From Escherichia phage phiAPCEc03, in sequence record NC_047754.1: 64,000 bases of DNA; one strand, given 5' to 3'. The notes beneath the pieces are model-generated. The model made no database searches. It was given only the letters and a program-made list of their open reading frames with translations, and was not told the origin of the DNA. The translations under genes and the position numbers were made by a program. Positions 1 through 30,284 of the stretch are shown here, one piece after another. Positions within the stretch are counted from its first letter, which is position 1; each line of letters opens with the position of its first letter.

Positions 1-74
1 TAAGCCCTGTGTTTCCTGGAGAGCGCAGGGCTTTTCTGTATAATGTATTTATACAACTAACTAGGGGATCAAAT

Positions 75-593
75 ATGACTGTTGATGAACTAACAGAACA
101 TCTCTTATCTAGAGGGTTTGATACAGATAAATATCATTGCTGGTTAAGCCCGGAAGGATGGCTAACAGTCCCATTGTATGATTTCTCTGGGATGTTGAGA
201 GGTTACCAGACTTATAATCCTTCTGCTCCAAAAGGACATGGTAAATCTCCTTTTGAAGCTAAGTATTTTACTTATTCTACTACACAGTGTGTATGGGGGC
301 TGGAAACTCTCAATGGAGATGAAAAAGTAGTATTGGTTGCTGAATCTGTATTTAAGGCAGTTGCGTTACATAATGCTGGTTATACAGCCCTGGCAATGTT
401 GGGTTCTTCTCCAGGAAAAGCGCTATTAAAGCAATTGAAATTACTACCTTTTAAATTGGTAGCTGTCGGGGATAATGATCCTGCGGGTGAAAAATTTGCT
501 AGAAAATTAAACGGCTTTGTTTCTCCTGTAGACGTAGATGAGATGTCTACCGAAAACTTGAAAAATTTTCTTGCTATGAAGCTAAATTTCTAA
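75..593 (+). CDS. Toprim-domain protein (primase-like fold)
   Basis: ORF with GGGG-type RBS before ATG at 75; conserved Glu in VLVAES and DxD motif in VGDNDPAG typical of Toprim domains; ORF frame is open from 9 but 75 has the better RBS. Confidence 0.45.
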   Translation: MTVDELTEHLLSRGFDTDKYHCWLSPEGWLTVPLYDFSGMLRGYQTYNPSAPKGHGKSPFEAKYFTYSTTQCVWGLETLNGDEKVVLVAESVFKAVALHNAGYTALAMLGSSPGKALLKQLKLLPFKLVAVGDNDPAGEKFARKLNGFVSPVDVDEMSTENLKNFLAMKLNF

Positions 594-613
594 TATAATA
601 TATTTATAAATTC

Positions 614-702
614 GGAAGAATAGCATAACGGTATTGCAGCAGATTGCTAATCTGTCGGTTTGAAATATAGCCTTGTGGGTTCGATTCCCACTTCTTCCGC
701 CA
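614..702 (+). tRNA. tRNA-Ser (anticodon GCU), long variable arm, CCA encoded
   Basis: 7-bp acceptor stem GGAAGAA/TTCTTCC, anticodon loop TTGCTAA, T-loop GGTTCGATTCC, 3-prime GCCA. Confidence 0.8.
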
Positions 703-708
703 AATTCT

Positions 709-786
709 GGTTCTCAAGCTCATATGGTATGAGCACCCGGCTCATAACCGGAAGGTACGTAGGTTCGAATCCTCGGGGAGCCACCA
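709..786 (+). tRNA. tRNA-Met/Ile2-type (anticodon CAU)
   Basis: Acceptor GGTTCTC/GGGAGCC pairs with two G-U; D-arm GCTC-ATATGGTAT-GAGC; anticodon loop CTCATAA; T-stem only 3 bp, so moderate confidence. Confidence 0.55.
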
Positions 787-807
787 TCTTGATTAGAGAG
801 GTTACAA

Positions 808-996
808 GTGGAACTATACCTAGTTTGTGTTGTGTTTATTCCAGATAGGGAATACCCGGATGAATATAAAAAAGGATATAGGTTAGCTAGGGCTATCTCT
901 GAAGCTCAGGCTATGGATAAAGTGGCAGATTATATGATTATGGTAGAAAACGTACACTATATCGACTCCCTTGAAGCCTCAAAAGTAATTGAATAA
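808..996 (+). CDS. hypothetical protein (GTG start)
   Basis: 62-aa ORF with AGAGAGG RBS upstream of GTG. Confidence 0.35.
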   Translation: MELYLVCVVFIPDREYPDEYKKGYRLARAISEAQAMDKVADYMIMVENVHYIDSLEASKVIE

Positions 997-1005
997 GGAA
1001 ACTAT

Positions 1006-1191
1006 ATGTCTAAGTTTCAAGAACTCAAGCAAGAGCTAGAAGAATGTGTCTGTCCTGACTGTCTAGGAGTTGGGGAAGCCTCTGATGCAGAAGCAGGAGA
1101 TACTTTTTGCAATATCTGGGTTTGTCCTACATGCAAAGGCACAGGCATTAATCCTACCTGTGGTATTTCTCTAGATATTGAAAGAGGATAA
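1006..1191 (+). CDS. small zinc-ribbon protein
   Basis: 61-aa ORF with two CxxC pairs (CPDC, CPTC). Confidence 0.5.
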   Translation: MSKFQELKQELEECVCPDCLGVGEASDAEAGDTFCNIWVCPTCKGTGINPTCGISLDIERG

Positions 1192-1291
1192 TACCTGTGA
1201 AACTAAAAGATTATTATATTGGTTGGTTTGTGGGACTAGTAGTAGGATTTTCACTAGGCTATAATATGTATCAACTAATAAACTGATTACA

Positions 1292-1369
1292 TGGGGGTGT
1301 AATCGAATTGGCATACATACCGTCCTTAAAATTCAGGTTTTGAGGGTTCGAATCCCTTGTCACGCACCA
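1292..1369 (+). pseudogene. degenerate tRNA-like element (no pairing acceptor stem)
   Basis: Canonical T-arm GAGGG-TTCGAAT-CCCTT and 3-prime ACCA; D-arm segment AATCGAATTGGC shared with the tRNA at 1482; no complementary 5-prime acceptor strand found. Confidence 0.3.
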
Positions 1370-1379
1370 AATTTGATGG

Positions 1380-1445
1380 TCAGAGTAAACTAAACCTACT
1401 ATCTCGGTTGAGCTGTTTTAATGGGTTCGAATCCCAGCGAGGCGT
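1380..1445 (+). pseudogene. degenerate tRNA-like element
   Basis: T-arm TGGG-TTCGAAT-CCCA present but no acceptor stem and no CCA. Confidence 0.25.
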
Positions 1446-1481
1446 AACTGCCTGGTGTGATAGAGGCATCATCTTATTATT

Positions 1482-1572
1482 GGAAGAGCAAATCGAATTG
1501 GCGACGAAAACCGCTTGGAAAGTGGCTGACTGGTAAAACGGCTTGAGAGTTCAAATCTCTCCTCTTCCGCCA
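1482..1572 (+). tRNA. class II tRNA, probably tRNA-Ser (anticodon GGA)
   Basis: Perfect acceptor GGAAGAG/CTCTTCC, perfect T-arm GAGAG-TTCAAAT-CTCTC, CCA encoded; anticodon loop TTGGAAA; D-arm and variable arm parse imperfectly. Confidence 0.55.
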
Positions 1573-1579
1573 AACAAAT

Positions 1580-1669
1580 GGAAGGTAGGGCGTAGTGGTA
1601 CGCAACTAGTCTTGAAAACTAGCCCGCTGTAGTGATACGGTGATGGTTCGACTCCATTACCTTCCTCCA
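1580..1669 (+). tRNA. tRNA-Ser (anticodon UGA), long variable arm
   Basis: Acceptor GGAAGGT/ACCTTCC, anticodon stem CTAGT/ACTAG with loop CTTGAAA, T-loop GGTTCGACTCC, CCA encoded. Confidence 0.85.
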
Positions 1670-1687
1670 ACTTATAAGGAAAACCTT

Positions 1688-1891
1688 ATGAAACATATTG
1701 TTAAGTATACTGAAAGTGAACGTGGGTGGGGCGGTGAAATCTGGTATCGTGGCTTTGATTCTGAAGAAGAAGCTAGAGCTGAGGTTCATGATACTAATAA
1801 AAATCTGCCAAAAGATCATGTACCAGACTACTATATTCAGGCTAAGTATGACGGTGTTAAAGATAAGGTTCCTGAAGGCTATAAGTTTTAA
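1688..1891 (+). CDS. hypothetical protein
   Basis: ORF starting MKHIVKY with AAGGAAA RBS; the upstream part of the listed ORF overlaps the tRNA. Confidence 0.5.
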   Translation: MKHIVKYTESERGWGGEIWYRGFDSEEEARAEVHDTNKNLPKDHVPDYYIQAKYDGVKDKVPEGYKF

Positions 1892-1899
1892 ATAATTCT

Positions 1900-2030
1900 T
1901 GGAATATGCCGGAATTGGTAGACGGGACTGCCGAATAGGTTTACTAGGAACATCCACTCCTAGAAATATACCTTAAAAGCGGTTGAGTTAAATGGTCTAA
2001 CTCATGAAGGTTCAAGTCCTTCTATTCCTT
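1900..2030 (+). ncRNA. tRNA-like structured element (oversized, about 130 nt)
   Basis: D-loop-like AATTGGTAGA near the 5-prime end, perfect T-arm GAAGG-TTCAAGT-CCTTC near the 3-prime end, acceptor-like pairing GGAATA/TATTCC, but 80 nt of extra sequence with two hairpins in between and no CCA. Confidence 0.3.
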
Positions 2031-2259
2031 GATACATCAATGGCTCAAAGTGTAACGGTGCTATTTGATGCTCTTGGAAAGACTTTCCCGACAGGCGTTC
2101 GGGGGTAAGCTTCTGAGGCTAGAATAGAAGAGTTTCTGAGAGCCGCCACAATTGAAAATTCGTACTCGTCTTGAGCTGCGTGCAATAGGGGATAACTTGA
2201 TTAGTATTCTAGAACATGCTAATTGAGGATGGTTTCGCTAACCCTGCGAGTTTTCAATT

Positions 2260-2336
2260 GTGGCTATATCATAATTGGTTAATGATCCTGATTGTGAATC
2301 AGGCCTATGTGGATTCGAATTCCACTAGCCACCCCA
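2260..2336 (+). tRNA. tRNA-His (anticodon GUG)
   Basis: Acceptor GTGGCTA/TAGCCAC, D-arm TCAT-AATTGGTTA-ATGA, anticodon arm CCTGA-TTGTGAA-TCAGG, T-arm GTGGA-TTCGAAT-TCCAC, CCA encoded. Confidence 0.85.
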
Positions 2337-2361
2337 AATTAATTTAAATAGGAAATAAAAT

Positions 2362-2535
2362 ATGGCTGATTTCTGCAAACAATGCTCCATTGATATGTGG
2401 GGCAGAGATACTGGTGACTTAGCTGGTCTGATTACAGAAGCCGAAGTCAAAGAAGGTTATGGTGCAGTTGTGGTTTGCGAAGGATGCGGAGTCATTCGAG
2501 TAGATCATGAAGGTAAGCGCCTTGAAGAAGGTTAG
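2362..2535 (+). CDS. small zinc-ribbon protein (57 aa)
   Basis: ORF MADFCKQCS...CEGCG with two CxxC pairs; below the 60-aa cutoff of the ORF track. Confidence 0.4.
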   Translation: MADFCKQCSIDMWGRDTGDLAGLITEAEVKEGYGAVVVCEGCGVIRVDHEGKRLEEG

Positions 2536-2601
2536 CCAAGTCGGTTAAGGCTGGGGTCTCTGAAATCCTGATCAGTGGTTCAAATCCACTACCTTCTGCC
2601 A
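2526..2601 (+). tRNA. tRNA-Gln (anticodon CUG)
   Basis: Acceptor AGAAGGT/ACCTTCT, anticodon loop CTCTGAA, T-arm AGTGG-TTCAAAT-CCACT, CCA encoded. Confidence 0.7.
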
Positions 2602-2606
2602 AACAA

Positions 2607-2684
2607 TTGGGATTAGCTTAGCTTGGCCTAAAGCTTCGGCCTTTGAAGTCGAGATCATTGGTTCAAATCCAATATCCCCTGCCA
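2607..2684 (+). tRNA. tRNA-Gln (anticodon UUG), imperfect acceptor stem
   Basis: Anticodon arm TCGGC-CTTTGAA-GTCGA, T-arm ATTGG-TTCAAAT-CCAAT, CCA encoded; only 5 of 7 acceptor pairs form. Confidence 0.5.
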
Positions 2685-2691
2685 AATAATC

Positions 2692-2767
2692 GCGGTTAAG
2701 CACACGGGTTGTGTCGCAGGCCTTCCAAGCCTCGCTGAGTAGGGTTCGATTCCCTCTAGCCGCTCCA
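2692..2767 (+). tRNA. tRNA-Gly (anticodon UCC), tentative
   Basis: Acceptor GCGGTTA/TAGCCGC with one G-U, anticodon loop CTTCCAA, T-loop GGGTTCGATTCCC, CCA encoded. Confidence 0.6.
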
Positions 2768-2783
2768 ACTTTAAGGGAACACT

Positions 2784-3035
2784 ATGCACGTTTTTGAGTT
2801 TCGTAATAAAAGTACTGATAAGCGAGTTATCATTATTGGAGAAACATATCGAGCATATGAACAAACTGACGGCTCTGTTATCTTGAATGATGAGAAAGGA
2901 GGTTTTAGCTTTTATCCAGAAGAACCTTATGAAGAGTTTCGAAAACAATTTAACCTAGACTGGAGAAAGCATTTAAACACTGTTGCTCCATCTGTAGTAT
3001 TGCCAACTACCAGTACTGTACCCTCTAATGGCTGA
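2784..3035 (+). CDS. hypothetical protein
   Basis: 83-aa ORF with GGGAAC RBS-like sequence. Confidence 0.5.
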   Translation: MHVFEFRNKSTDKRVIIIGETYRAYEQTDGSVILNDEKGGFSFYPEEPYEEFRKQFNLDWRKHLNTVAPSVVLPTTSTVPSNG

Positions 3036-3192
3036 CAACCTAAAAGTAAAGATTGATAAACAAAAGAAACGTGTAGAAGTAGAGATTGGCGAAGAACGTG
3101 TTGCCTTTACTTTCGAGTTTCTTCAGCAGTTGGCTATGACAGTTATGACTGATAAGTCTCCTGTTATTGAAAAAGAAATCCCGTTGAAATAA
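3028..3192 (+). CDS. hypothetical small protein (54 aa)
   Basis: ATG overlaps the previous stop; ORF MADNLKVKIDKQ ends immediately before the next tRNA. Confidence 0.35.
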   Translation: MADNLKVKIDKQKKRVEVEIGEERVAFTFEFLQQLAMTVMTDKSPVIEKEIPLK

Positions 3193-3200
3193 CGGGTTCT

Positions 3201-3287
3201 GCTGGGTTGGCAGAATGGTTGAATGCACCTGATTTGTAATCAGGAGGAGTAATCCCGTTGCAGGTTCGAATCCTGTGCCCAGCACCA
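3201..3287 (+). tRNA. tRNA with anticodon UGU (Thr by anticodon) and an atypical long variable region
   Basis: Acceptor GCTGGGT/GCCCAGC, perfect anticodon arm CCTGA-TTTGTAA-TCAGG, T-arm GCAGG-TTCGAAT-CCTGT, CCA encoded; 15-nt variable region is unusual for Thr. Confidence 0.55.
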
Positions 3288-3301
3288 ATTTAAGGACTAT
3301 T

Positions 3302-3469
3302 ATGTTTAAACTGTTAGTAGTTATCTGGTATAGTCAATCAAATAGAGCGAATACCTCCCACGTTATAGACTTTAATACTAAAAATGAAGCTGAAAAAGCA
3401 TATGCTAATTTAATAGAACGCAATAAAGAATCTCGTAGTATAGTTTATGAAGTGACTAAACTTTATTAA
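3302..3469 (+). CDS. hypothetical protein
   Basis: ORF MFKLLVVIWY with AAGGA RBS; upstream part of the listed ORF overlaps the tRNA. Confidence 0.45.
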   Translation: MFKLLVVIWYSQSNRANTSHVIDFNTKNEAEKAYANLIERNKESRSIVYEVTKLY

Positions 3470-3477
3470 AAATTCAT

Positions 3478-3530
3478 TTGCTTTCTCTCTTATATTCTTG
3501 TTATAATATTTATATAAATTAATGAGAGGG
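3478..3530 (+). promoter_or_regulatory. T5-type early sigma70 promoter
   Basis: -35 TTGCTT, 18-bp spacer, -10 TATAAT, then conserved TATAAATTAATGAGAGGG box before the ATG at 3538. Confidence 0.6.
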
Positions 3531-3537
3531 AAACCAA

Positions 3538-3831
3538 ATGAAACGTTATCTTTCTGTTGTGTTCCAAACTGGTGGTCAACGCTATACCTATGAATTTCCT
3601 AGCTCTTGGAAGATCAAAGAAGGTGATCAAGTTGTTGTGTTAACACCGCGTGATGGGTACAAGGTAGTAACGGTTAAGCAAGTCTTCACAAAAGATTATG
3701 AACCGTCTAAGTCTATTAACTATAAGATGATTCATGGTGTAGTTCGTCAAGTACCACGAGCGGAAGTCGAAATCAAAGTAGATAAAGATGGTAAACTTAA
3801 ATATACCTCTTGCTTAGACGAGTTGCTATAA
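3538..3831 (+). CDS. hypothetical protein
   Basis: 97-aa ORF downstream of the promoter. Confidence 0.6.
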   Translation: MKRYLSVVFQTGGQRYTYEFPSSWKIKEGDQVVVLTPRDGYKVVTVKQVFTKDYEPSKSINYKMIHGVVRQVPRAEVEIKVDKDGKLKYTSCLDELL

Positions 3832-4037
3832 TGAGGATTACTTTCACAGAAAAGATCATGAGTAACGGTGTTATGATCATTACCGCATGGGATGGTAATC
3901 AGTGGTGTAGTGTTTCAGGTATTAAGCCTGAAGAACAAACACTAGAAAATATCTCAAAGATTAAGCGAAGAATGGCAGAACGTGCACGACTTCCAGGTGC
4001 ACCTAGAAATGGCAAACGTTCTGCTGTAAAATGTTAA
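3831..4037 (+). CDS. hypothetical protein
   Basis: ORF MRITFTEK; start overlaps the upstream stop (TAATG). Confidence 0.45.
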   Translation: MRITFTEKIMSNGVMIITAWDGNQWCSVSGIKPEEQTLENISKIKRRMAERARLPGAPRNGKRSAVKC

Positions 4038-4038
4038 T

Positions 4039-4115
4039 GCTTCGGTAGCTTAGCGATCTAAAGCACTCGGCTGATAACCGAGAGATCGGGGGTTTAAATC
4101 CCTCCCGGAGTACCA
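4039..4115 (+). tRNA. tRNA-Ile (anticodon GAU)
   Basis: Acceptor GCTTCGG/CCGGAGT with G-U pairs, perfect anticodon arm CTCGG-CTGATAA-CCGAG, T-arm GGGGG-TTTAAAT-CCCTC, CCA encoded. Confidence 0.8.
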
Positions 4116-4211
4116 AATTTAGGAATTAAGACTATGCGTCCAGGAAAGTTTAAAAAAGCTAATTGGTCTAAAGAGTATAAAGAATACTTACTTAGTCTAA
4201 TAAAACATAAT

Positions 4212-4287
4212 AGTTAGTTGGCAGAGTGGTTATGCACCTCCTTCATACGGAGCGACTACAGTGGTTCAAATCCACTACTAACTACCA
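4212..4287 (+). tRNA. tRNA-Met/Ile2-type (anticodon CAU)
   Basis: Acceptor AGTTAGT/ACTAACT, anticodon loop TTCATAC, T-arm AGTGG-TTCAAAT-CCACT, CCA encoded. Confidence 0.7.
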
Positions 4288-4324
4288 TTAAAAGAGCTAG
4301 AGATAGCTAAATATAGGAGCAATT

Positions 4325-4519
4325 ATGTTAACAGTTAAAATAATGTCCACTGATGGTGGTGAGCAGATTCATGTTGGTAAAAGCGTAGGGTTTAATCCCA
4401 GAAATAAAAGCATAGCTATTTCTGGAATAGATCAAGCAATCTTCTTAAAAGAAGATGAAGTAGCATACGTTATGAACCAAACTGGTAAGACAGTTTCTGT
4501 ATATCGTGGTAAACTATAA
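4325..4519 (+). CDS. hypothetical protein
   Basis: 64-aa ORF with GGAG RBS. Confidence 0.5.
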   Translation: MLTVKIMSTDGGEQIHVGKSVGFNPRNKSIAISGIDQAIFLKEDEVAYVMNQTGKTVSVYRGKL

Positions 4520-4561
4520 AGAATAAAGAGCTGAGCCAATTTCTAACATCGTGGAGATCTA

Positions 4562-4930
4562 ATGAAAGCATATCAAAATCTTAAATCTGGCGTAATTAAC
4601 CTTGTTCATGAAAATCAGATTATTCAGCTATACTCCGACAACGGCGAACTTAAGCAGAAAGTTCTAGTTGAAGATCTAGAAGGTATCACACCACAATTCG
4701 ATCCCGAAGCCTTCCGTGAGGTCAAAGTGGAAGTCGCCCCTCAAATCGAAGGTGGTCAACACCTAAACGTCAATGTGTTAAGCCGTGATCAGCTTTTGGA
4801 TGCGCAGAAACATCCTGAAAAATACCCTCAGTTGACCATCCGTGTCTCTGGCTACGCTGTTCGATTTAATGCACTGACTCGTGAACAACAGAACGACGTT
4901 ATTAGTCGTACATTTACTCAGGCGATGTAA
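4562..4930 (+). CDS. hypothetical protein
   Basis: 122-aa ORF with GGAGA RBS. Confidence 0.55.
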
Positions 4931-5011
4931 TGGGGTTTGGATACGATTTCTCCCAGCTACGCAAGGTAGTCGAGCAAACTCCGTTTATCTCCCAAGTTTT
5001 AGGAGAAATGT

Positions 5012-5326
5012 GTGGATCGAGCATTAAGACGTCATCACCGGCAACGTGTGAAGAACAACCGCAAGAAGTACTGGACAGCCTTTCCACATGAAGAAAGCCC
5101 TAAGCGGTTAGGTATTATCACTACTACTCCTTGCATCTGTTCTTGTTGGATGTGTGGTAACCCTCGCAAGTACTATAAGAATAGTAAAGCAGGCATGAAG
5201 ACCTCGGAGATCAGGAAAATGGAAGCGATGATTATGGGCATCTCAAATGATGAATTTGATGGCTTTGTAGGGTTCGGAGAAGGAATCAGCTCAGGCTGTT
5301 TCGAAGATGAACGCCCCGATCTGTAA
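5012..5326 (+). CDS. hypothetical basic protein with Cys cluster (GTG start)
   Basis: AGGAG RBS 6 nt before GTG; arginine-rich N-terminus and CxCxC/CxxC cysteines. Confidence 0.45.
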   Translation: MDRALRRHHRQRVKNNRKKYWTAFPHEESPKRLGIITTTPCICSCWMCGNPRKYYKNSKAGMKTSEIRKMEAMIMGISNDEFDGFVGFGEGISSGCFEDERPDL

Positions 5327-5447
5327 TTAATAACAAACCCCAGCTATTGAATAAGTAGTCTGTGGTTTTTCTGTATACAGGAAAATAGTTTATGTATAAT
5401 AAAATTCATCCACATTAGGTTAATTTAAAAGACTTAATGGAGGTAAT

Positions 5448-5795
5448 ATGAGCCGTACTTATCGTAGACAATCTGGTGATCAGTGGTGGAAGTCTAAAGA
5501 ACAATTCTCTCAAGAATATTCTTTCCTCAAAGAAAATGGCTACTGGATTCGTGTTATTTATGCCAAATCCTGGGACGACATCAAAAAAGAAATGAAGGAA
5601 GCAACCATTCGTAATGAGAAAAAGGATGGTTATAACTGGAATTCCATTAGTAAGAATGTTAAGTGGCACTCTAATAAAATGGTTCGTCAAGGGAATCGTC
5701 AAGAACTTCACCGCGTGATGAAAGATCCAGAAAATTACGACTATAATCGCGATCATGACATGCGTAAGCGTGGGTTATGGTGGTGCTATGACTAA
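5448..5795 (+). CDS. hypothetical protein
   Basis: 115-aa ORF with GGAGG RBS. Confidence 0.6.
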   Translation: MSRTYRRQSGDQWWKSKEQFSQEYSFLKENGYWIRVIYAKSWDDIKKEMKEATIRNEKKDGYNWNSISKNVKWHSNKMVRQGNRQELHRVMKDPENYDYNRDHDMRKRGLWWCYD

Positions 5796-5812
5796 ATTCT
5801 GAAATAATTCAT

Positions 5813-5865
5813 TTGCTAAACCTCTCTTTTCTTGCTATAATATATTTATAAATTGATGAGAGAGG
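5813..5865 (+). promoter_or_regulatory. T5-type early sigma70 promoter
   Basis: -35 TTGCTA, 17-bp spacer, -10 TATAAT, then ATAAATTGATGAGAGAGG box. Confidence 0.6.
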
Positions 5866-5871
5866 TTTGAA

Positions 5872-6153
5872 ATGAAAAATCGCCTAGACTGTGCCATTCA
5901 TGTTCTTGAACATGATGTTGCGGGAACCTGTATGTCTTACCACGAAGCAGGTCGTTTAATTAAAGAACGTGTGGCAGATGTGTGCGGATTGAAGATTACT
6001 GCTGAGGAAGCGGATGATCTTTTAGGTCAAGCACTGGAGAAAACCGAAATGTTCCTCTGCGATTCTTGTTCTTGGTGGTGTGAAGCTCACGAACGTTCTT
6101 TCAACGATTATGATGTATGTCGTGATTGTAGTGGGGAGGATGAAGATGAATAA
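5872..6153 (+). CDS. hypothetical Cys-rich protein
   Basis: 93-aa ORF downstream of the promoter; CDSCSWWC and CRDCS motifs. Confidence 0.55.
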   Translation: MKNRLDCAIHVLEHDVAGTCMSYHEAGRLIKERVADVCGLKITAEEADDLLGQALEKTEMFLCDSCSWWCEAHERSFNDYDVCRDCSGEDEDE

Positions 6154-6442
6154 GTTTATTATTGCACTGATGATCTCCGCAGTTAGTTTCGGTTCTCTGG
6201 CGTCTACCAAAGTTTCTATGAAAAATGGTAATGTTAAAGTCCAACAGAGCGGCATTATTACCGAGTATGGTAAAGTTCGTGATGTTAAAGAACGTAATGG
6301 TAAGGTAGAAATCTATACTAATAAAAACTTCTCTACTCCAGCCGTTACTATTAGCAAACGCGGTGAAATAACCACTCAACGTACTAATAGCTCCAGTTCT
6401 TTTACTTGTCGTTATGATTGCGACTTTGAAGGAGAAGAGTAA
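6146..6442 (+). CDS. secreted protein with signal peptide
   Basis: GGAGGA RBS; N-terminus MNKFIIALMISAVSFGSLAS is signal-peptide-like. Confidence 0.5.
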   Translation: MNKFIIALMISAVSFGSLASTKVSMKNGNVKVQQSGIITEYGKVRDVKERNGKVEIYTNKNFSTPAVTISKRGEITTQRTNSSSSFTCRYDCDFEGEE

Positions 6443-6443
6443 C

Positions 6444-6752
6444 ATGGAAAAGAACGTGAAAAGACTAAACATCAATAGCACGGTGCAGATTCCAGCAACT
6501 AAGGATGTTTTAACATTCCTACGAAGTGAAAACGCTCAGTTTTGGCATGATCATGTTGTAAAGAACGGTAGTATTCCAGATGTAGTTGCCTTTGCCAAAA
6601 AACGTATCGAAGAATATAAAGATCCAGAGATTAAAGATGGGATGATCACTATGCAATTGTGGGTAGCCATGAATACGTTTGGACCTACTATGAGTCTAGG
6701 GGTTACTCCACTATTTACTAATATTCTAATTAATGAAAAGGATCTAAAATGA
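6444..6752 (+). CDS. hypothetical protein
   Basis: ORF MEKNVKRL with GGAGAAG RBS. Confidence 0.5.
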   Translation: MEKNVKRLNINSTVQIPATKDVLTFLRSENAQFWHDHVVKNGSIPDVVAFAKKRIEEYKDPEIKDGMITMQLWVAMNTFGPTMSLGVTPLFTNILINEKDLK

Positions 6753-7033
6753 TTATCTCTCCCTTTGCTCTTTGGTTCGTCATTGGATCTATAGTAGCTA
6801 TTTACAGCTTGGTTGATGATCTGTATATTTCTAAGAATAAAGATGTAATATTATACGTTATACATAAAACTCGACCGTTAGATCTGCCTCCTCTTGATGA
6901 TAAAACATTACTCAGATGTGCTAGATCTATGATATTTATTGTGGATATTCTTCTAGGCCCAACATCTGTGTTTTTCTTTTATAGAAAGACTCGTAATATG
7001 AAAAAATTTAAAGCTGAAATGCAGAATACCTAA
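6749..7033 (+). CDS. membrane protein
   Basis: 94-aa ORF with hydrophobic segments; ATGA overlap with the upstream gene. Confidence 0.5.
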   Translation: MIISPFALWFVIGSIVAIYSLVDDLYISKNKDVILYVIHKTRPLDLPPLDDKTLLRCARSMIFIVDILLGPTSVFFFYRKTRNMKKFKAEMQNT

Positions 7034-7142
7034 AGAACTCGCGTAGGACCGAGTTGCGTCACCTGCAACTGTTACGGATAAGGGAGTCGTGCCCCTTAGT
7101 GCGGTAAGTGGTGAGGTGGCTCTAGCCCTAACTGGAGATAAT

Positions 7143-7487
7143 ATGACTATATTACTAATTCTTGTTACAACTTGGTTTTTAATCGGTGCTGTATATGCGA
7201 TAGCTATTATTAGACATTTGGACGAATACTCTGCTGAATGGTTTGTTAAGTATCTACGTATTGATGATCAAGAACATGAGTTTAAAGATGAAAGACAGAA
7301 AAAAGCAGTAAATAATATGACAGCCAAAGAATGCTTGTTCTACATGCGTATTGTAGGGTTCTTTGGACTATTAGTTGCTGGCCCAATTGGTTCTACCATT
7401 GCTCCATATAAAGAAACAGTTGCTGACATCAAATTGTGGAGAAATGCAGGGGTACTACGCAAAGCTAGAGAAACTAGTATTACATAA
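7143..7487 (+). CDS. membrane protein
   Basis: ORF MTILLILVTTWFLIGAVYAIAII with GGAGA RBS. Confidence 0.5.
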   Translation: MTILLILVTTWFLIGAVYAIAIIRHLDEYSAEWFVKYLRIDDQEHEFKDERQKKAVNNMTAKECLFYMRIVGFFGLLVAGPIGSTIAPYKETVADIKLWRNAGVLRKARETSIT

Positions 7488-7532
7488 GATTGACACTAAG
7501 TCAACTTACTAGCAAAAGCAAATAATGACAAA

Positions 7533-7568
7533 GCCCAGCCTGCACTTTTGCGACTGGGCTATTTTTAT
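7533..7568 (+). terminator. rho-independent terminator
   Basis: GC-rich hairpin GCCCAG...CTGGGC followed by a T-tract. Confidence 0.6.
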
Positions 7569-7581
7569 AATAAAATTTTAG

Positions 7582-7634
7582 TTGCTTAGATGCCCAAACT
7601 TTTATATAATATGTTTATAGATTGAGGCAAGAGG
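7582..7634 (+). promoter_or_regulatory. T5-type early sigma70 promoter
   Basis: -35 TTGCTT, 17-bp spacer, -10 TATAAT, downstream GATTGAGGCAAGAGG. Confidence 0.6.
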
Positions 7635-7641
7635 ATTAAAT

Positions 7642-8322
7642 ATGAGAATCATTTCTAAATTCGCCGATGTGTATGATTTGCAGAACAGTTTGTTCGACCC
7701 TGATCGTGTTTGGGAGCGTAAAACTGAAGAGCTAACAATAAAGGCTCCAGATGATGGCAACTACATGATTATGCAAGAACGTATAATTGCTCGTGTTGGT
7801 GAAAAGAACGGCTACTTTAAAATTCTACCGTTTTTCCTAGCAGGAGAGATTTACTGGATGTACCATATTGATGTATTGGATACTCAAGTAAAAACTTTCA
7901 ACCTAGACAAAGCATTAGAAGTTCTGAAAGAGAATGGATGGTCAACGGGGTTTTCTCTGCTAGATATAAATAGGGGGAAGCCAAAAGAATCTATCCTATC
8001 CTGGAAAGAGGAAGTTACCTCTAAAGCTGAAGAAGCCTTAGCTGAGTTAAGAGTACCCTTAGCGGTTCTAGACTCAGTAGTTCCAAATGATAAAGATAGT
8101 AATAAGTATTTCAAGGCTATAACTAACCCACGCCTACATCTATCAGGTATTCCGTGGCAGGAAGTTGAAAGCAACTTATACCGATTACACCAGAGGGTTG
8201 AGCAGTATATCTGGGGGGTGCTTGGAACTGGAGAACCAGATATTATTACCACTTCTGATAAAGACCGCCTAGCAGCACATGGATTTGATACGGTTACATC
8301 ATTTAGGAATATGAAAAGATGA
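7642..8322 (+). CDS. hypothetical protein
   Basis: 226-aa ORF downstream of the promoter. Confidence 0.6.
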   Translation: MRIISKFADVYDLQNSLFDPDRVWERKTEELTIKAPDDGNYMIMQERIIARVGEKNGYFKILPFFLAGEIYWMYHIDVLDTQVKTFNLDKALEVLKENGWSTGFSLLDINRGKPKESILSWKEEVTSKAEEALAELRVPLAVLDSVVPNDKDSNKYFKAITNPRLHLSGIPWQEVESNLYRLHQRVEQYIWGVLGTGEPDIITTSDKDRLAAHGFDTVTSFRNMKR

Positions 8323-8762
8323 TAAAAAACTTTATTAGTTCTCTATGGCACGGTAAGTGGTATATCCTGGGAGCAGGTCTAGCGATAGGCATCTGGTTCG
8401 GTGCTTATCACTTAGTAGATAAAGTGGAGACTTTAGCAGGAGATCTTGCGGTAGCTACTAAAAAGATTTCTTCTCTAGAGACTTCCCTTAATAAGGTGAA
8501 AGCTGAAAGTGAACTTCGTGAGACTAGAATGAATCAGTATTTCACAATGAATAATATTTCGCAAGCAGATCTAGACAAAAAGATTAAGCAGTTAGATAAA
8601 GCTCTTAGTCGCCAAGATATTATAGCTGCAAAACCTGGATTGGTAACATTAATTGCTAAAAAGCAGAGTAAAGAGTTCGAGGAAAGATTAGCGTGTTTAA
8701 CTGGAAGCTTGGAATACTGCTCGCAGCCGCAATCACAATCACAGGCTGCGCACAAGAAATAA
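8319..8762 (+). CDS. membrane-anchored coiled-coil protein
   Basis: N-terminal transmembrane segment then heptad-like region. Confidence 0.5.
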   Translation: MIKNFISSLWHGKWYILGAGLAIGIWFGAYHLVDKVETLAGDLAVATKKISSLETSLNKVKAESELRETRMNQYFTMNNISQADLDKKIKQLDKALSRQDIIAAKPGLVTLIAKKQSKEFEERLACLTGSLEYCSQPQSQSQAAHKK

Positions 8763-9046
8763 AGCCAGAACCTACACATGAACTACCAACAGCTCATGTG
8801 GACTGGCCTAAAGGACTTCAACCTTGTAGCTTTGACTTTAAGTTTGAAAAGAAATTAGCTACAAATGGAGAAGATGGCGTAGTAGTTGTTGTACCATATA
8901 AAGATTGGAATGCAAAAGCAAAATGTGAGGAAGCAGTTTACTCTTACATTTCACGACTGACTGGTATGGTTTGCTTCTACCGCCAAGATTTACAAGAAAA
9001 ACGTTGCTTAGTTTACTATCCACCAATTAACAATAGGAAAGATTAA
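8693..9046 (+). CDS. lipoprotein
   Basis: Signal peptide with lipobox ITGC. Confidence 0.5.
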   Translation: MFNWKLGILLAAAITITGCAQEIKPEPTHELPTAHVDWPKGLQPCSFDFKFEKKLATNGEDGVVVVVPYKDWNAKAKCEEAVYSYISRLTGMVCFYRQDLQEKRCLVYYPPINNRKD

Positions 9047-9798
9047 TGTCAGTATTAGTAGGTTTACATGGTGAAGCTGGTTCGGGAAAAGATACCGTTG
9101 CAAAATTAATTATCGATTGGTGTAATGACACGTATCCAACGTGTTTATCACGTCGTTATAGTTTTGCTAAGCCCGTTTATGAACTTGCATCCGTAATCCT
9201 CGGTGTAACTCCAGAGTTTCTAGGAGAGCGCAGAGGAAAAGAGATTGACCAATGGTTTACGGTCACACAATCTCAATTGGAGCGAGCCAGAGATGTGTGG
9301 TTTAAGTACGGTATCGATAAGTTTGAAGACTTCTCGTACGTTTGGCCTATTTTTGAGGAAAAATATCTTAATCCTCAACAACTTATCTCAGAGAATAAAG
9401 AAGACGGACTTTATAGTTTATTTATTTCTCCGAGAAAAATGTTACAGCTCGTAGGGACAGAGCTAGGAAGGCAGCTGGTGCATGAACGCATTTGGCTCAT
9501 AATTCTGGAGCAATCCATCGCTAAAGACGACCCAGATGTCGCCGTAATAACAGATGTTAGATTCCCCAATGAAGGAGAGTTACTCAGAGAAACAAACCAT
9601 TTAGATATGGATTCTTTGATAGTAAATGTAGTACCCGCTGAGCAGAAGTTCACTATTAAATCAGATCATCCATCTGAAAGTGGTATTCCTGCAAAATATA
9701 TTACTCACGAATTAGTTAATAAATTCGATGGTATCAATAACCTTAAACTAGAAGTTTATAACTTCTGTGACTTAGAGCTAGAACCACTAGTTGGATAA
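9046..9798 (+). CDS. dnk: deoxynucleoside monophosphate kinase
   Basis: P-loop GEAGSGKDT as in T4-type dNMP kinases; 250 aa matches the size I recall for T5 dNMP kinase. Confidence 0.65.
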   Translation: MSVLVGLHGEAGSGKDTVAKLIIDWCNDTYPTCLSRRYSFAKPVYELASVILGVTPEFLGERRGKEIDQWFTVTQSQLERARDVWFKYGIDKFEDFSYVWPIFEEKYLNPQQLISENKEDGLYSLFISPRKMLQLVGTELGRQLVHERIWLIILEQSIAKDDPDVAVITDVRFPNEGELLRETNHLDMDSLIVNVVPAEQKFTIKSDHPSESGIPAKYITHELVNKFDGINNLKLEVYNFCDLELEPLVG

Positions 9799-9810
9799 TC
9801 AAGGATCGCT

Positions 9811-10392
9811 ATGACTAATAAAAAAGAAGAAAAGACTAACCTGTTTCACTCCATTCGCCAATCTAACGAGTATACCTTTTTCTTTGATGAAGAACTCGGT
9901 CCGCCGGATGAATACCGTGATTTAGCAATGGTACTTATGCAGGCAAATGAGGACGATGAAATTAATCTGATGATTAATGGTCCGGGTGGTTATGTTGATA
10001 CTGCTGCACAGTTATCTAACTTAATTGCTAATTGCCGTGGAACAGTTATAGGGCATCTGATTGGTCCTAGTGCTTCTGCTTACTGCACAATTTTCCTATC
10101 TTGTCATGGATGGGTAGTACATCCACATGCTACGCTAATGGGACACACGTTCTCTGGCGGGTTCTGTGAGAAGGGTCAAGAAATTAAGAAAGCCTATGAA
10201 TCTTACAACAAGTTCGTAGAAGATATGATGCTAGATGTCTACTATCCATTCTTCTCAATAGATGAAATAGACGAGATGGTAAAAGACAACAAAAATATCT
10301 ATCTAGATAGCAAGGAAATCCATAAGCGTATTGAAATCTTGGCAAAATATCGATCTGAGCAATATAATAAAGCCCAGTTACCTCAATTCTAG
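9811..10392 (+). CDS. ClpP-like serine peptidase
   Basis: INGPGG motif, Ser in GPSASAY and His in GHTFSGG spaced as in ClpP. Confidence 0.5.
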   Translation: MTNKKEEKTNLFHSIRQSNEYTFFFDEELGPPDEYRDLAMVLMQANEDDEINLMINGPGGYVDTAAQLSNLIANCRGTVIGHLIGPSASAYCTIFLSCHGWVVHPHATLMGHTFSGGFCEKGQEIKKAYESYNKFVEDMMLDVYYPFFSIDEIDEMVKDNKNIYLDSKEIHKRIEILAKYRSEQYNKAQLPQF

Positions 10393-20960: not shown

Positions 20961-21845
20961 ATGTATAACTTTAAAGATAAACTAAGACAAAATGCTGGCA
21001 AAACAAAACCTAAAGAGAACAATAATGTTCCTAATGCCAAAGTATTACCATTTCCAGAACTATCTCAAGAAGAAAAAGATAAGTTAGCATTTATGTTTGA
21101 TGCCCTTCTAGGGCTAAATGGACGTTTATACTCCTCACTCAATATTAATGAGAAACGTCTAGTAGAGATGTTCTGTAAGCGTTATCAAGTTACTTCAAAG
21201 GGTAATTCTTATAAAGAAGGTGAGAAAGCATTTACAGTCTTAAAGATTAGCGCATATGCACATCGTTTCTTAGTTTATGGGTTACAGATGGAATACTTCA
21301 CCATCCCATCATTTAGCTCTTTCCATATCTTTGAAGATGAACGAATGAATATTGATGATCTCTATGGGGATACGTACAAATACTCAGGAAGTCCATTCCA
21401 TGATGCATTAAGGAGCTACCCAACTAACTACTTACCAGTTAGGGCATCACAAGGTAAAGCTAGCATCTTCGCTGTTTACTCAGGATCTAAAGCATCGGAT
21501 CTAGAAACTTATATATTTAAAGAGCGTAAATCTGTACTTCCAGATGAAGCATTGTATAATAATCCATTGCTTCCAGAAAAAGAACCAGAGAAGATTGATG
21601 TAACCCCACCAATCCCATCTGATTCCCAGTATTTAATTTATGAGAAACAAGTTAAGTTATCCCTAGAAATTGGGTTAGTTACACCGCTTGCTGCAGCATT
21701 CATCAATAGGTATCTAGAAATTCCTGACGAGTTCCACACACGTTATAATACGAATATTCAGATAACGGATGAACTAATAGCTATTGCAAAAAGTACGCCT
21801 ACAGATACTGAGGCGTATCAAAAAGCATACCAAGAGTTACTATAA
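20961..21845 (+). CDS. hypothetical protein
   Basis: 294-aa ORF with GGAGA RBS; last gene before the repeat-rich noncoding region. Confidence 0.6.
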   Translation: MYNFKDKLRQNAGKTKPKENNNVPNAKVLPFPELSQEEKDKLAFMFDALLGLNGRLYSSLNINEKRLVEMFCKRYQVTSKGNSYKEGEKAFTVLKISAYAHRFLVYGLQMEYFTIPSFSSFHIFEDERMNIDDLYGDTYKYSGSPFHDALRSYPTNYLPVRASQGKASIFAVYSGSKASDLETYIFKERKSVLPDEALYNNPLLPEKEPEKIDVTPPIPSDSQYLIYEKQVKLSLEIGLVTPLAAAFINRYLEIPDEFHTRYNTNIQITDELIAIAKSTPTDTEAYQKAYQELL

Positions 21846-22382
21846 TATTCTGCAAGTCTCGGTGCACAATACCTGTACCGAGACAATAATACAAACTCTC
21901 GTTGACAGATAGCTAAATGTATGTTATCATAACTCTATGAGTTAATAGAATTAACCATTTAGAGTTGCCACACAGAAGGTGTGGTGGTTCAGTAATTTAA
22001 AATTACTAACTTGTAGCGGAGGATACGGAGCGACAGGACAAGTTAATAAGTAATTTAATATAAATTGCTAGAAACATCACGAGACCTTCTGGCGGGGGCA
22101 AAGCTCTATATGAGAACCCTGGGGGATCTTATATTTAAAATAAAAGTAAAACTTTTGACCACATAATTTACATTCAAGATGATACACCTGTTGCCGCTCA
22201 TCTGCTAGGATGGCACAACACTTTCTTCTAGACTCCTAAGTTTTTATGAAAACTCTAGTCAACTCAGGCGGTTTTCATTGTTCCTAGAAACTCTAGCAAT
22301 AGGCGGTTAATACAGGGCGGTTATAGGGAGGGCGGTTATTTCTAGGAGACATTTTTTGAAAACACATTTCCAGAAATTACTA

Positions 22383-22981
22383 TCGGATTTGCACATTGTG
22401 TTTCTAGAAATTTATGGTCGGATTTGCACAAACGCCTAAGTTTTCAGGAACTCTTACTCTCCTGAAAATGGCAGCATTATTTCGGGCCGAAGGCCCGTGA
22501 TTGCCTGAGTTTTTAGAGTCACAATAATTTTCACTTGTCAAGCTATTTTGCCCCATTTAGCTAATAAAATTTTACTTTATCTGCACTTATCTCAAATTAA
22601 CCCAAATCTTCTCAACTCTTCCCCAAAATCCCCGCAAATCAGGTGCTCCGCACCAAACATGCACCTCTCCCACAGTTCCCCCAAGTTTCTCTCGCTCTCT
22701 CAACTTCTCCCCAAACTCATACAATCACACACCCTCCAATCGAAGTCACAAAAATCTTGTCGGATTCGCACAAATAAACCCCTGTCGGATTTGCACATAT
22801 TCTAGCTAATTCCACAGGATTGATGCGCAGCATCGGATTGCTGTAGTTTTTAGGAAAATTCATTGTCGGATTTGCACACTATAAAAATTTTTCGGGTCGG
22901 ATTTGCACACTACTAAAAATTGTCGGATTCGCACATACACGCCCACGCGTAACACCCGTGGAGCAATGTCGGATTTGCACA
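22383..22981 (+). repeat. iteron-like array: 8 direct copies of 13-bp TCGGATTYGCACA
   Basis: Copies start at 22383, 22428, 22759, 22785, 22866, 22897, 22923 and 22969, all in the same orientation within a noncoding region. Confidence 0.85.
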
Positions 22982-23033
22982 AAAGCGCAGGGCAATTGCC
23001 CTGCCCGCCTGAATGCAAATACAAATGAGAATC

Positions 23034-23165
23034 ATTCGCATTTAAAAAGCGGAATGAGAATGATAATGATTCGCATTTAAAAAGTGAAATGAAAATTATT
23101 CAGGAAGTGAAACGATTCTCATTTAAAAAGTGGAATGCAAATGATAGTGATTCGCATTTAAGAAC
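23034..23165 (+). repeat. 4 direct copies of ATTCGCATTTAAAAAG-containing unit
   Basis: Units at about 23034, 23069, 23115 and 23150, period about 35-45 bp. Confidence 0.75.
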
Positions 23166-23191
23166 GGAAGTGAGAAACACTGTTATTTAAG

Positions 23192-23273
23192 TTATCCACA
23201 GACTTATTAACCGCATAATTTGACTTGACAGAATCCTAGCCATTTTGAGGCGTTATTAACAGACTTATCCACA
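23192..23273 (+). promoter_or_regulatory. DnaA-box-like 9-mers (TTATCCACA), two copies
   Basis: Exact TTATCCACA at 23192-23200 and 23265-23273. Confidence 0.55.
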
Positions 23274-23442
23274 GCTTATCCTACTGTATAAATATACAGT
23301 ATTCCTACGCAGTGAATAATTCTAATATAGTCCTAAAACGTCCTAGATCGCATTCTAACGCGTTTAATTTTGGTGGGGATACTAAAACAAGGGGTTATCC
23401 GGTTGCAGGCGTGAAAAACGGGGATCTGCTCCCCGCTTGTTG

Positions 23443-23637
23443 TCAGTCCGGTAATTGATGCGTGATCTTCTCCTCCTCCCCGTAGGAATCGACCAAATGT
23501 TGATAGTAACCATCGGCATCATAAATAACGCTATCATACTCGCCACGCTCGACCGCTTGCCGGTTTTCCGGCGTATCGGGCACGTAAAAAACATCAACCA
23601 TTGTACTGGTTTTAGTCACAATAATTTTATTGCTCAT
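23443..23637 (-). CDS. hypothetical small protein (pre-early-like block)
   Basis: 64-aa ORF with AGGGG RBS-like sequence. Confidence 0.5.
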   Translation of the reverse strand: MSNKIIVTKTSTMVDVFYVPDTPENRQAVERGEYDSVIYDADGYYQHLVDSYGEEEKITHQLPD

Positions 23638-23662
23638 AATAACCCCTAGTAAATATATAATT

Positions 23663-24007
23663 TCATTGTGCTACCTTTCGAAAAGCTGTTTCAATACTTT
23701 CCGCAGTTGATTGAATATACGCGCCTTTCATGATCAGGCGCTCAGTGCATATCTTACGGAAAATATTAATAAAATCATCTTCATTTTCTGCAATTAATGC
23801 TTCACCCATAACCTGAACGTCGCAAGATGCAAAGGTCAAAAATTGAAACGCTAGTTCACGGGCAACGACCGCATTGATTTTATAATGCGCCTTGCCCTCA
23901 TAAATATTAATAACGCCCTTGTAAGCTGGGGAAAGCTGGTTTAAATAGTTTGCTAGTAATGCCGGACGGCAATTAGCAACAAAGCGGTTGCCCTCATAAA
24001 TAACCAT
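23663..24007 (-). CDS. hypothetical protein
   Basis: ORF with GGGAGG RBS before internal ATG at 24007 (MVIYEGNRF); the listed ORF extends to 24022. Confidence 0.5.
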   Translation of the reverse strand: MVIYEGNRFVANCRPALLANYLNQLSPAYKGVINIYEGKAHYKINAVVARELAFQFLTFASCDVQVMGEALIAENEDDFINIFRKICTERLIMKGAYIQSTAESIETAFRKVAQ

Positions 24008-24130
24008 TTTATAACCTCCCAATCAGGTAACCAGATAAAAGCATAAAAATCCCCAGTAAAAGGGGATCATTCTTAAATAAGGTGGCGGTAAAACCGCCAA
24101 CCATTGCAAGGAGAATAACAATAGCGCTTT

Positions 24131-24343
24131 TCATAGTACCCCACGAAACGCAGCGTAAAAGGTGGCAAAGTGTTTAACTGTTTCAGCGATCACGTTGCCG
24201 CGCTTGTCAAATTTTTTCTCGGTAACACGAAAGGCATTTTTGTTACGTGCTACATATTCGATTTTACAATCTTCCCGCTCGAACGTGTTAACATCCACCA
24301 GCTTAAAGCCTTTCGAACGTGCAAGAGAAACGTTGCGGATCAT
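24131..24343 (-). CDS. hypothetical basic protein
   Basis: 70-aa ORF. Confidence 0.5.
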   Translation of the reverse strand: MIRNVSLARSKGFKLVDVNTFEREDCKIEYVARNKNAFRVTEKKFDKRGNVIAETVKHFATFYAAFRGVL

Positions 24344-24345
24344 TT

Positions 24346-24501
24346 TTATTCTCCTTTACTAGTCATGCAGCCCAGCAGATAAGAAAATACAGCGATACCC
24401 GCGCCAATAATAACCGCGTGAACGCCGAAAGCTATGGCAAAAAGTGATAAAATAGCGCCCAAGATACCTGCCAGAATAGCTCGAAAAATAACCATTTTCA
24501 T
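24346..24501 (-). CDS. small hydrophobic membrane peptide (51 aa)
   Basis: ORF MKMVIFRAILAGILGAILSLFAIAFGVHAVIIGAGIAVF, GGAG RBS; below the ORF-track cutoff. Confidence 0.4.
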   Translation of the reverse strand: MKMVIFRAILAGILGAILSLFAIAFGVHAVIIGAGIAVFSYLLGCMTSKGE

Positions 24502-24541
24502 TCTCCTAGTTAGCGGGGCGAAAATAACGCCCCGTTATTAC

Positions 24542-24772: not shown

Positions 24773-24889
24773 TTTAAGCCTCCAATTTTTGGGAAAATTT
24801 TCAACCGTCCTCGAACGGTGTAAGGGCATTATAACAAAAAAGGCCGCCGATTATGGCGACCTTTACAAAACTTTACATTAGATTATTTA

Positions 24890-27191: not shown

Positions 27192-27216
27192 CAACCTAGC
27201 CGATAGGTTTTAAGAT
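27188..27216 (+). promoter_or_regulatory. sigma70-like promoter
   Basis: -35 TTGACA, 17-bp spacer, -10 TAAGAT. Confidence 0.4.
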
Positions 27217-30228: not shown

Positions 30229-30284
30229 TTAAATTATTCCCCTAGCGGCTTGAAATATAGTCGCTATTACAGGAGTCACAAAAA

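Follow-up and report, generated by a model that had tools for sequence, protein, structure and literature searches.

The subject of this work is a pair of inverted repeats, a palindrome and a GC-rich hairpin, in one noncoding region of Escherichia phage phiAPCEc03 (NC_047754.1), of which a stretch of 64,000 nucleotides was analysed (hereafter the window). The palindrome is an 18-bp perfect dyad, GCAGGGCAATTGCCCTGC, centred on AATT at positions 22987–23004. The hairpin, CGGGCC-GAA-GGCCCG, folds from the + strand at 22483–22497. Both had been singled out in a preliminary description made from the letters of the sequence, which placed them in the same noncoding region, and we indeed found no open reading frame (ORF) of at least 100 amino acids between 21846 and 23442. 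The region is dense in repeats, including eight copies of TCGGATTYGCACA, four of ATTCKCATTTAARAA, GGCGGTT repeats, and DnaA boxes. The palindrome had been given as 16 bp long at 22989–23004; a 16-mer (CAGGGCAATTGCCCTG) is present, but it lies one base to the left, at 22988–23003, and is nested in the longer dyad. The hairpin is where it was reported, with a stem of 6 bp rather than 5 and a 3-nt loop, and GGGCC/GGCCC is the core kept in relatives.

The noncoding region (21846–23440) matches 454 phage records, nearly all of them T5-like phages of Escherichia and Salmonella. Compared with T5, it shows 91 per cent identity across 99 per cent of its 1595 nt, on the opposite strand, and the pairwise alignment is collinear with 93 per cent column identity. 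The phage is T5-like (Tequintavirus), with its sequence in reversed orientation relative to T5; because the T5 match is on the opposite strand, the + strand of the window is the minus strand of T5, the one that is nicked. The T5 counterpart of this DNA is annotated as ‘injection stop signal’, ‘left terminal repeat; comprises first-step-transfer DNA’, and ‘major DNA single-chain interruption’, with direct repeats A–D and palindromes C–J. The region is the equivalent of ‘Repeat Region 3’ in T5 (the injection stop signal), an extensive noncoding stretch around the inner end of the terminal repeat that holds in order palindrome C, inverted repeats with DnaA boxes, direct repeat C, palindrome J, six copies of direct repeat D, direct repeat A, the end of the terminal repeat, and three further copies of direct repeat D. 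Outside the terminal repeat there is one copy of direct repeat D fewer than in T5 (a 46-nt gap). The 18-bp dyad is the equivalent of T5 palindrome J (AY587007, 9650–9666), and we use that name for it here. On this comparison, the window takes in the point at which the long terminal repeat of a T5-like phage joins its unique early region.

Sequences of relatives were collected from IMG/VR and GenBank, and the DNA-similarity searches covered three genera of the Demerecviridae (Tequintavirus, Epseptimavirus, and Sugarlandvirus). An IMG/VR pattern scan with GAGCCACANNAATTTT, aimed at more distant relatives, gave mostly chance matches among the matches listed. The region flanking the signals is about 9 per cent diverged from T5. 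Close relatives are highly conserved over the entire noncoding region, so that the conservation of any one element in it says little by itself.

The left arm of palindrome J is part of the consensus for the major nicks of T5. The four major nicks share the consensus R/GCGCRGG (Ksenzenko, cited in PMC3517423), where the slash marks the interruption, and the window carries A/GCGCAGGG at 22984–22992 on the + strand. This site aligns base for base with both annotated positions of T5 nick 1. In AY587007, palindrome J overlaps ‘major single-stranded nick 1, 7.9%’ at 9661–9668, and in AY543070 the interruption is placed on the minus strand between 9748 and 9749, at AAAA/GCGCAGGGCAATTGCCCTGC (core GCGCAGGG). 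Position and sequence are thus orthologous to T5 palindrome J and major interruption 1 (7.9% and 99.5%), and the surroundings are shared as well, with copy 1 of direct repeat D before the nick and the direct repeat C array and the inverted repeats with DnaA boxes after it. By homology, we predict a + strand nick between A22984 and G22985; the break in virion DNA would leave 5'-pGCGCAGGGC. The suggestion that the palindrome is a nicking site was therefore right in substance, in that its left arm supplies the core of T5 major nick site 1. Among relatives, the nick core and an upstream RCGTAA are conserved, the core without exception.

The palindromic symmetry that had suggested a nicking site is another matter. 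Extracting the four annotated T5 sites gave the core GCGCAGGG at nicks 1–3 and GCGCGGG at nick 4. There is no inverted repeat at nicks 2 and 4, both of which are within genes, and at nick 3 a terminator on the nicked strand has CAGGGC as its 3' arm, so that the partner arm is on the other side, the reverse of the arrangement at nick 1. Judged by these sites, symmetry is not the nick determinant. The consensus is not sufficient either: R/GCGCRGG also occurs on the strand that carries no nicks, and further determinants must therefore exist (PMC3517423).

A candidate for such a determinant, and for the second half of a bipartite nick signal, is the motif CGTAA at 22948–22952 (+ strand), 37 nt 5' of the predicted nick. 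At each of the four major nicks of T5, the nicked strand has YGTAA at a distance of 35–37 nt on the 5' side. The T5 st0 genome (113,238 bp) contains eight R/GCGCRGG sites; YGTAA accompanies all three known nicks and none of the other five sites, with a background probability of 0.011. Combined as YGTAA-N29-32-R/GCGC, the pattern occurs in T5 st0 exactly at nicks 1, 2, and 4, always on the nicked strand, and is absent from the other strand (0.8–0.95 occurrences expected per strand). The window holds four sites of this kind, all on the + strand, at 9228, 22985, 31957, and 63914. The sites at 9228, 22985, and 63914 are orthologous to nicks 2, 1, and 4, respectively, and the nick 2 ortholog has the core GCGCAGAG where T5 has GCGCAGGG. 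The nick 3 ortholog, at position 23, is so close to the window edge that its upstream part is missing. (The window starts 22 nt before the nick 3 ortholog and ends 86 nt after the nick 4 ortholog.) The site in palindrome J is on the same strand as all the other orthologous nick sites, and it resembles T5 nick sites 2, 3, and 4 in core, in strand, and in having YGTAA 35–37 nt upstream. The upstream YGTAA is a criterion proposed in this analysis, not an established one, but these counts make it most likely that nick recognition uses a bipartite signal, here CGTAA (22948–22952), about 31 nt, and then A/GCGCAGGG.

The remaining site belongs to a second 18-bp perfect palindrome, TTAATTAGCGCTAATTAA, at 31950–31967, which is centred on GCGC and lies beyond the outer (left) end of the terminal repeat, at a distance of 40–57 nt. 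It matches the bipartite pattern as TGTAAT-N29-A/GCGC on the nicked strand, with a predicted + strand nick at 31956/31957. The homologous T5 site is not palindromic and has a spacing one base shorter. We also considered a second nick on the opposite strand of palindrome J, which would turn the palindrome into a staggered double-strand cut, and rejected it because the - strand reads GGCGGGCAGGG rather than GCGCAGGG. Sequence-specific nicks on one virion strand are likewise found in Pseudomonas phage tf and the phiKMV-like phages, where the literature gives their function as unknown; these phages belong to different families, and their consensus sequences (TACTRTGAC; CGACxxxxxCCTACTCCGG) are unrelated to that of T5.

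Perfect palindromes of this length had been called uncommon, and their expected number is indeed low (1.4 of at least 16 bp in 64 kb). Six are present, however, so the class is enriched and palindrome J is not unique in the window. For palindromes of at least 18 bp the count is three against 0.36 expected, and since 30 per cent of Markov-1 simulations contain at least one, a single palindrome of this size is not decisive. The longest in the window, at 22 bp (AAGGCGGGAATATTCCCGCCTT, 11643–11664), is probably a bidirectional terminator.

The dyad in AY543070 is a perfect 18 bp like that of the window, while AY587007 is short of one C in the right arm; the bases that follow the dyad are CCGCC versus TCGCC in the comparison of the window with T5. 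Conservation had been proposed as a check on the palindrome, and its stem is kept in the Tequintavirus and Epseptimavirus relatives and absent in Sugarlandvirus (phages of Klebsiella), where the nick core is kept without palindrome J. What is conserved is a 7-bp stem with a variable loop. Pairing holds in 98.9 per cent of cells across thirteen distinct variants, with compensatory change at two of the seven stem pairs, a result equalled by only 2 of 500 shuffles. In two lineages both sides of a pair have changed, giving GCAGAGC with GCTCTGC and GGGGGC with GCCCCC. The loop is AATT (4 nt) in most relatives, and in Epseptimavirus this centre is replaced by four different loops of 11–12 nt with the arms unchanged. 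Because the arms keep pairing while the loop goes from 4 to 11–12 nt, the alignment favours a palindrome kept as a single-strand hairpin over an operator for a dimeric protein. On this reading the right arm repeats the GC-rich nick core in inverted form, so that the two can pair as a 7-bp hairpin, and it is this pairing that is selected.

A role for such a hairpin is suggested by the direction of transcription. The pre-early genes (homologs of T5p010–016) run in the - strand direction and end at palindrome C (23419–23435, - strand), an annotated rho-independent terminator in T5 whose fold is followed by UUUUU. Palindrome C comes directly after the last pre-early ORF, and palindrome J lies about 430 nt farther downstream on the same strand. 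We took as the criterion for an intrinsic terminator a GC-rich stem, a short loop, and a U-tract no more than 2 nt from the stem. Read on the - strand, palindrome J has seven pairs (six of them GC), a loop of four, and the tail GCTTTTGTGC, and a terminator consensus scan lists it on that strand (three sites, against 1.2 expected in shuffles). Most likely, palindrome J acts as a back-up intrinsic terminator on the - strand at the very end of the first-step-transfer DNA, where pre-early transcription would meet the stem and then GCTTTTGTGC.

The GC hairpin marks a different place. It is followed on the + strand by a spacer and T-run, TGATTGCCTGAGTTTTTA/G at 22498–22516, within which the inner end of the terminal repeat falls by homology at 22515/22516, 18 nt from the hairpin. 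The left repeat of T5 ends ...GAGTTTTTA/GAGCCACAG in both complete T5 records, and the eight IMG/VR loci from records that contain both repeats end exactly at /GAGCCACAG. The same boundary appears in the long terminal repeat annotation of MM-2 and in PhageTerm results for Sw2 (Epseptimavirus) and KpGranit (Sugarlandvirus). By homology, the boundary in the window is A22515/G22516 and would form the right end of virion DNA. The terminal repeat, the first-step-transfer DNA, runs from this inner end to 31911, its outer end (T5 position 1), and there meets the right-hand end of the unique region, so that a single collapsed copy of the repeat (22516–31911) is present in the assembly. Looking for nicks or termini at the two signals, as had been proposed, is apt for the hairpin as far as termini are concerned, given the repeat end 18 nt away, but the hairpin is not a nick site.

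GC-rich perfect hairpins (stem of at least 6 bp, at least five GC pairs, loop of 3–8 nt) are strongly enriched in the window, with nineteen matches (about thirteen distinct) against 1.3 expected, and each of them is just one of about thirteen. The hairpin is invariant in the Tequintavirus and Epseptimavirus loci examined. The block CTGAAAATRGCAGCATTATTTCGGGCCGAAGGCCCRTGATTGCCTGAGTTTTTA is nearly invariant in all thirty-six copies of the locus examined, and it is present in 444 phage records. More telling is Sugarlandvirus, whose phages IME260 and KpGranit have an unrelated stem, CACGGTG-TGT-CACCGTG, 17 nt before TTTTTTA/GAGCCACAG. By these alignments, what the three genera conserve is the hairpin as a structure and how far it stands from the end, not its sequence. 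The repeat annotation of IME260 itself (1..10277) stops inside the hairpin; comparison of its two repeat copies, together with PhageTerm for KpGranit, puts the boundary 20 nt further in, as in T5. In Sugarlandvirus the outer stem CAAGC/GCTTG abuts TTTTTT, the canonical layout of a terminator, and the ortholog of the hairpin in phage Sw2 is annotated as a terminator.

A promoter that could supply the transcript lies upstream. At 21902–21930 on the + strand there is a strong sigma-70-type promoter, TTGACA-17-TATCAT with the TG of an extended -10 (11 of 12 consensus matches), pointing towards the hairpin. It is essentially invariant in close relatives, and its counterpart in Klebsiella phage IME260 is TTGACA-17-TAGAAT. 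The promoter is followed by an ORF-poor, almost invariant stretch (21937–22240, + strand) that is a candidate structured noncoding RNA: the first 300 nt or so are about 99 per cent identical to T5, conservation per 20 nt is 0.86–1.00 and mostly at least 0.95, and the sequence folds better than its shuffles (z = -4.4). No + strand ORF longer than 33 amino acids was found downstream of the promoter, and the stretch has no annotation in the T5 records and no Rfam match; an Rfam scan of 21700–23700 with E up to 1 returned two sub-threshold chance hits only. After about 580 nt without a long ORF, the GC hairpin is the first hairpin with a T-run downstream of this promoter. From its sequence context, the GC hairpin is probably a terminator and possibly an end-formation signal. 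Most likely, it terminates or pauses the promoter-driven transcript at the repeat boundary, and it may also help to mark the cleavage site for the right end.

Elsewhere in the window is a likely trans-acting partner for the nick site. The ORF at 35382–35861 (+ strand) encodes a protein 98 per cent identical (tblastn) to the T5 ‘probable sciB protein’, and it matches the terminase small subunit family PHROG 3802 (E = 1e-90), with no Pfam match. In T5 st0 the gene is annotated as ‘probable sciB protein; involved in formation of single-chain interruptions’ and adjoins the gene for the terminase large subunit. This suggests that the packaging enzyme makes the nicks. From the SciB annotation and the PHROG match we infer that they would be half-cuts mediated by terminase, probably made during packaging by the terminase nuclease under the guidance of the small-terminase-like SciB protein.

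As a whole, we consider it fairly probable that palindrome J is the core of a nick site that doubles as a back-up terminator and that the GC hairpin terminates a transcript at the boundary of the terminal repeat. Several observations weigh against this explanation. Both elements share with intrinsic terminators a GC-rich stem-loop followed by T residues, and palindrome J passes the scan on the - strand, but its U-tract is short (GCUUUUGUGC, with only four consecutive T) and in some relatives weaker still (GCTTATGTGC), degraded to TTAT. A good terminator, palindrome C, is already present 430 nt upstream, and Sugarlandvirus does without palindrome J. The GC hairpin is unlisted in the terminator scan, with a T-run that starts 12 nt after the stem, though an extended fold leaves 4 nt between its closing pair and the T-run. 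The flanks of the hairpin are also invariant, as they might be in a DNA site recognised by a protein no less than in a terminator. Finally, the link between SciB and terminase comes from a ‘probable’ GenBank annotation plus the name of a PHROG.

The two signals are embedded in further repeats. Direct repeat D of T5 (TCGGATTYGCACA) is present as eight same-strand copies at 22383–22983 (+ strand), the last of which stops 3 nt short of the nick, and exact copies are confined to this interval. With their GATTTGCACA core, these repeats match the DnaA-box consensus TTWTNCACA at eight of nine positions, on a single strand; one relaxed copy lies at 20617, and there is none elsewhere in the 64 kb outside 22383–22983. 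On the other side of palindrome J, the T5 direct repeat C (ATTCKCATTTAARAA repeats) and two consensus DnaA boxes (23192 and 23265) occupy 23034–23273 (+ strand). The T5 counterpart of this part has most often been proposed as the injection stop signal proper, and in the literature the repeats and palindromes of the injection stop signal are still candidates whose role is unexplained.

The ends of the terminal repeat show some features of their own. Four paralogous copies of a motif (CCTRAGTTTTYAGRA / GATTGC..AGTTTTTAG) are found at 22234–22256, 22434–22452, 22499–22516, and 22836–22856; the repeat boundary falls inside the third, which is the only copy preceded by the GC hairpin. Outside the left end of the repeat we found neither a counterpart of the GC hairpin nor a motif in common; the window has there an unrelated palindrome that T5 is without. 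Just outside that end, at 31940–32468, about 529 nt that T5 does not have are inserted in the window between the repeat and the T5.162-side sequence. Both repeat ends (22516–22523 and 31904–31911) have YCAC at +4 to +7, as CCAC/CCAC in T5 and TCAC/TCAC in the window. The end bases are GAGCCACA / TGTCCACT in T5 and GAGTCACA / TGCTCACT in the window, which amounts to a single possible co-variation of the termini. The T5 records themselves differ: in AY692264 (T5 st0) the terminal repeat is given as 1..9749 and stops precisely at nick 1, the figures in the wild-type T5 records are 10,139 and 10,219, and the third base after the repeat boundary varies across the three T5 records (GAG, GAT, GAA).

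We weighed four other explanations against a nick core with a back-up terminator and a terminator at the repeat boundary. For the hairpin, the alternative with most to recommend it is a signal acting at the level of DNA rather than transcription, in which the hairpin and the adjacent CCTGAGTTTTTA/GAG would mark the right end for terminase or an end-processing nuclease, either as the cut in the concatemer or as the start of repeat duplication. The distance from hairpin to physical end is constant (17–18 nt) in three genera even though the stem is fully replaced, the flanks are invariant beyond the stem, and the literature does not give a mechanism for T5 end formation. The cut-site motif GATTGC..AGTTTTTAG and AAGTTTTYAGGAA also has paralogs without a GC hairpin at 22234, 22434, and 22836, and something extra must therefore single out the real cut site. 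Yet no comparable hairpin stands outside the left end, and swapping the stem for an unrelated sequence points to a single-strand structure (RNA or single-stranded DNA) rather than duplex recognition. With a conserved promoter upstream and a canonical stem and U-tract in Sugarlandvirus, we think a purely DNA-level end signal possible but unlikely. A mechanical or protein-bound part of the injection stop, in which a cruciform, hairpin, or bound protein at 7.9% would halt transfer after the first 8 per cent of the genome, is less probable again. Palindrome J does sit at the classical 7.9% boundary of first-step transfer, inside the annotated injection stop signal, with a stem conserved by compensation in a region whose repeats and palindromes the literature still counts as unexplained candidates for this function. 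Against this, Sugarlandvirus lacks palindrome J with the rest of the architecture kept, the GC hairpin is outside the terminal repeat and so beyond the stop point, and a 7-bp hairpin in duplex DNA would be a weak obstacle.

The two remaining explanations seem to us very improbable. An operator, as the preliminary description had offered for the palindrome, would be bound by a dimeric regulator such as the pre-early DNA-binding protein A2, and in its favour the palindrome is a perfect 18-bp dyad, with AATT at its centre, that lies in a regulatory region. The half-sites of an operator should keep a fixed spacing, however, and here it goes from 4 to 11–12 nt in Epseptimavirus with the arms still complementary. 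The joint change of both arms in two lineages is easier to explain by base pairing than by a fixed protein dimer, the nick consensus, which non-palindromic sites share, already accounts for the left arm, and no promoter is placed for control by the palindrome. We accordingly disfavour the operator and give it little credence. Least probable of all is a replication origin or partition site. The region does offer iterons, in the form of eight direct repeats, two consensus DnaA boxes, an AT-rich palindrome, and direct repeat D copies with their eight-of-nine matches to TTWTNCACA. Davison's review of mapping studies, however, places the T5 origins near the centre of the genome, and according to the same review the replication genes are not expressed while only first-step DNA is in the cell. 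The nick site and the repeat boundary already explain the palindrome and the hairpin, and we rejected the reading of the iterons and DnaA boxes as an origin on the strength of this literature.

A broader reading joins the two signals and goes beyond the explanation preferred here, and we hold it to be improbable as it stands. End formation and nicking in T5-like phages would be two outputs of one terminase-based recognition system. The nicks would be terminase half-cleavages guided by the SciB (small-subunit) protein at bipartite YGTAA-N30-R/GCGC sites, one of which would also lie just outside the left repeat end (31957 in the window). The right end would be set by the structure-conserved hairpin and T-run 17–18 nt outside the repeat. 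In ending a noncoding transcript, the hairpin would allow pausing or termination of the polymerase to mark the site of cleavage or repeat duplication, as at the concatemer junction of T7. That junction reportedly carries a pause and termination signal where the genome ends are made. The T7 signal is a class II signal without a hairpin, read by T7 RNA polymerase inside a 160-bp repeat. The likeness to the GC hairpin and T-run, a pause or termination signal where genome ends form, would be one of analogy only; here the signal is a hairpin, would be read (if at all) by the host polymerase, and lies outside a repeat of about 9.4 kb.

Much of what lies at this locus has been described before. As the ortholog of a T5 element in another T5-like phage, the palindrome is not new; GenBank records of T5 annotate it together with the nick and the repeats around them, and all are discussed in the literature from 1987 to 2020. 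In the limited literature covered, we found no description of the YGTAA half of the nick signal, which may nevertheless have been published earlier, nor of the compensatory evidence for palindrome J as a hairpin, nor of a hairpin 17–18 nt outside the repeat end in three genera, for which a prior description is likewise possible. These three points, drawn from sequence comparison, would be modest additions to long-standing questions.

What the T5 nicks are for, what the injection stop consists of, and how the 10-kb terminal repeats are made have been questions since the 1960s and 1970s, and recent literature still calls them unexplained. Our analysis adds no new element, but it places two signals precisely, one at the 7.9% nick and the other 18 nt from the physical end of the genome. 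It also turns them into statements that can be tested: that the nick would need the upstream YGTAA and not the palindrome, that the palindrome would be kept as a hairpin, and that a structurally conserved hairpin would mark the repeat boundary in three genera of T5-like phages.

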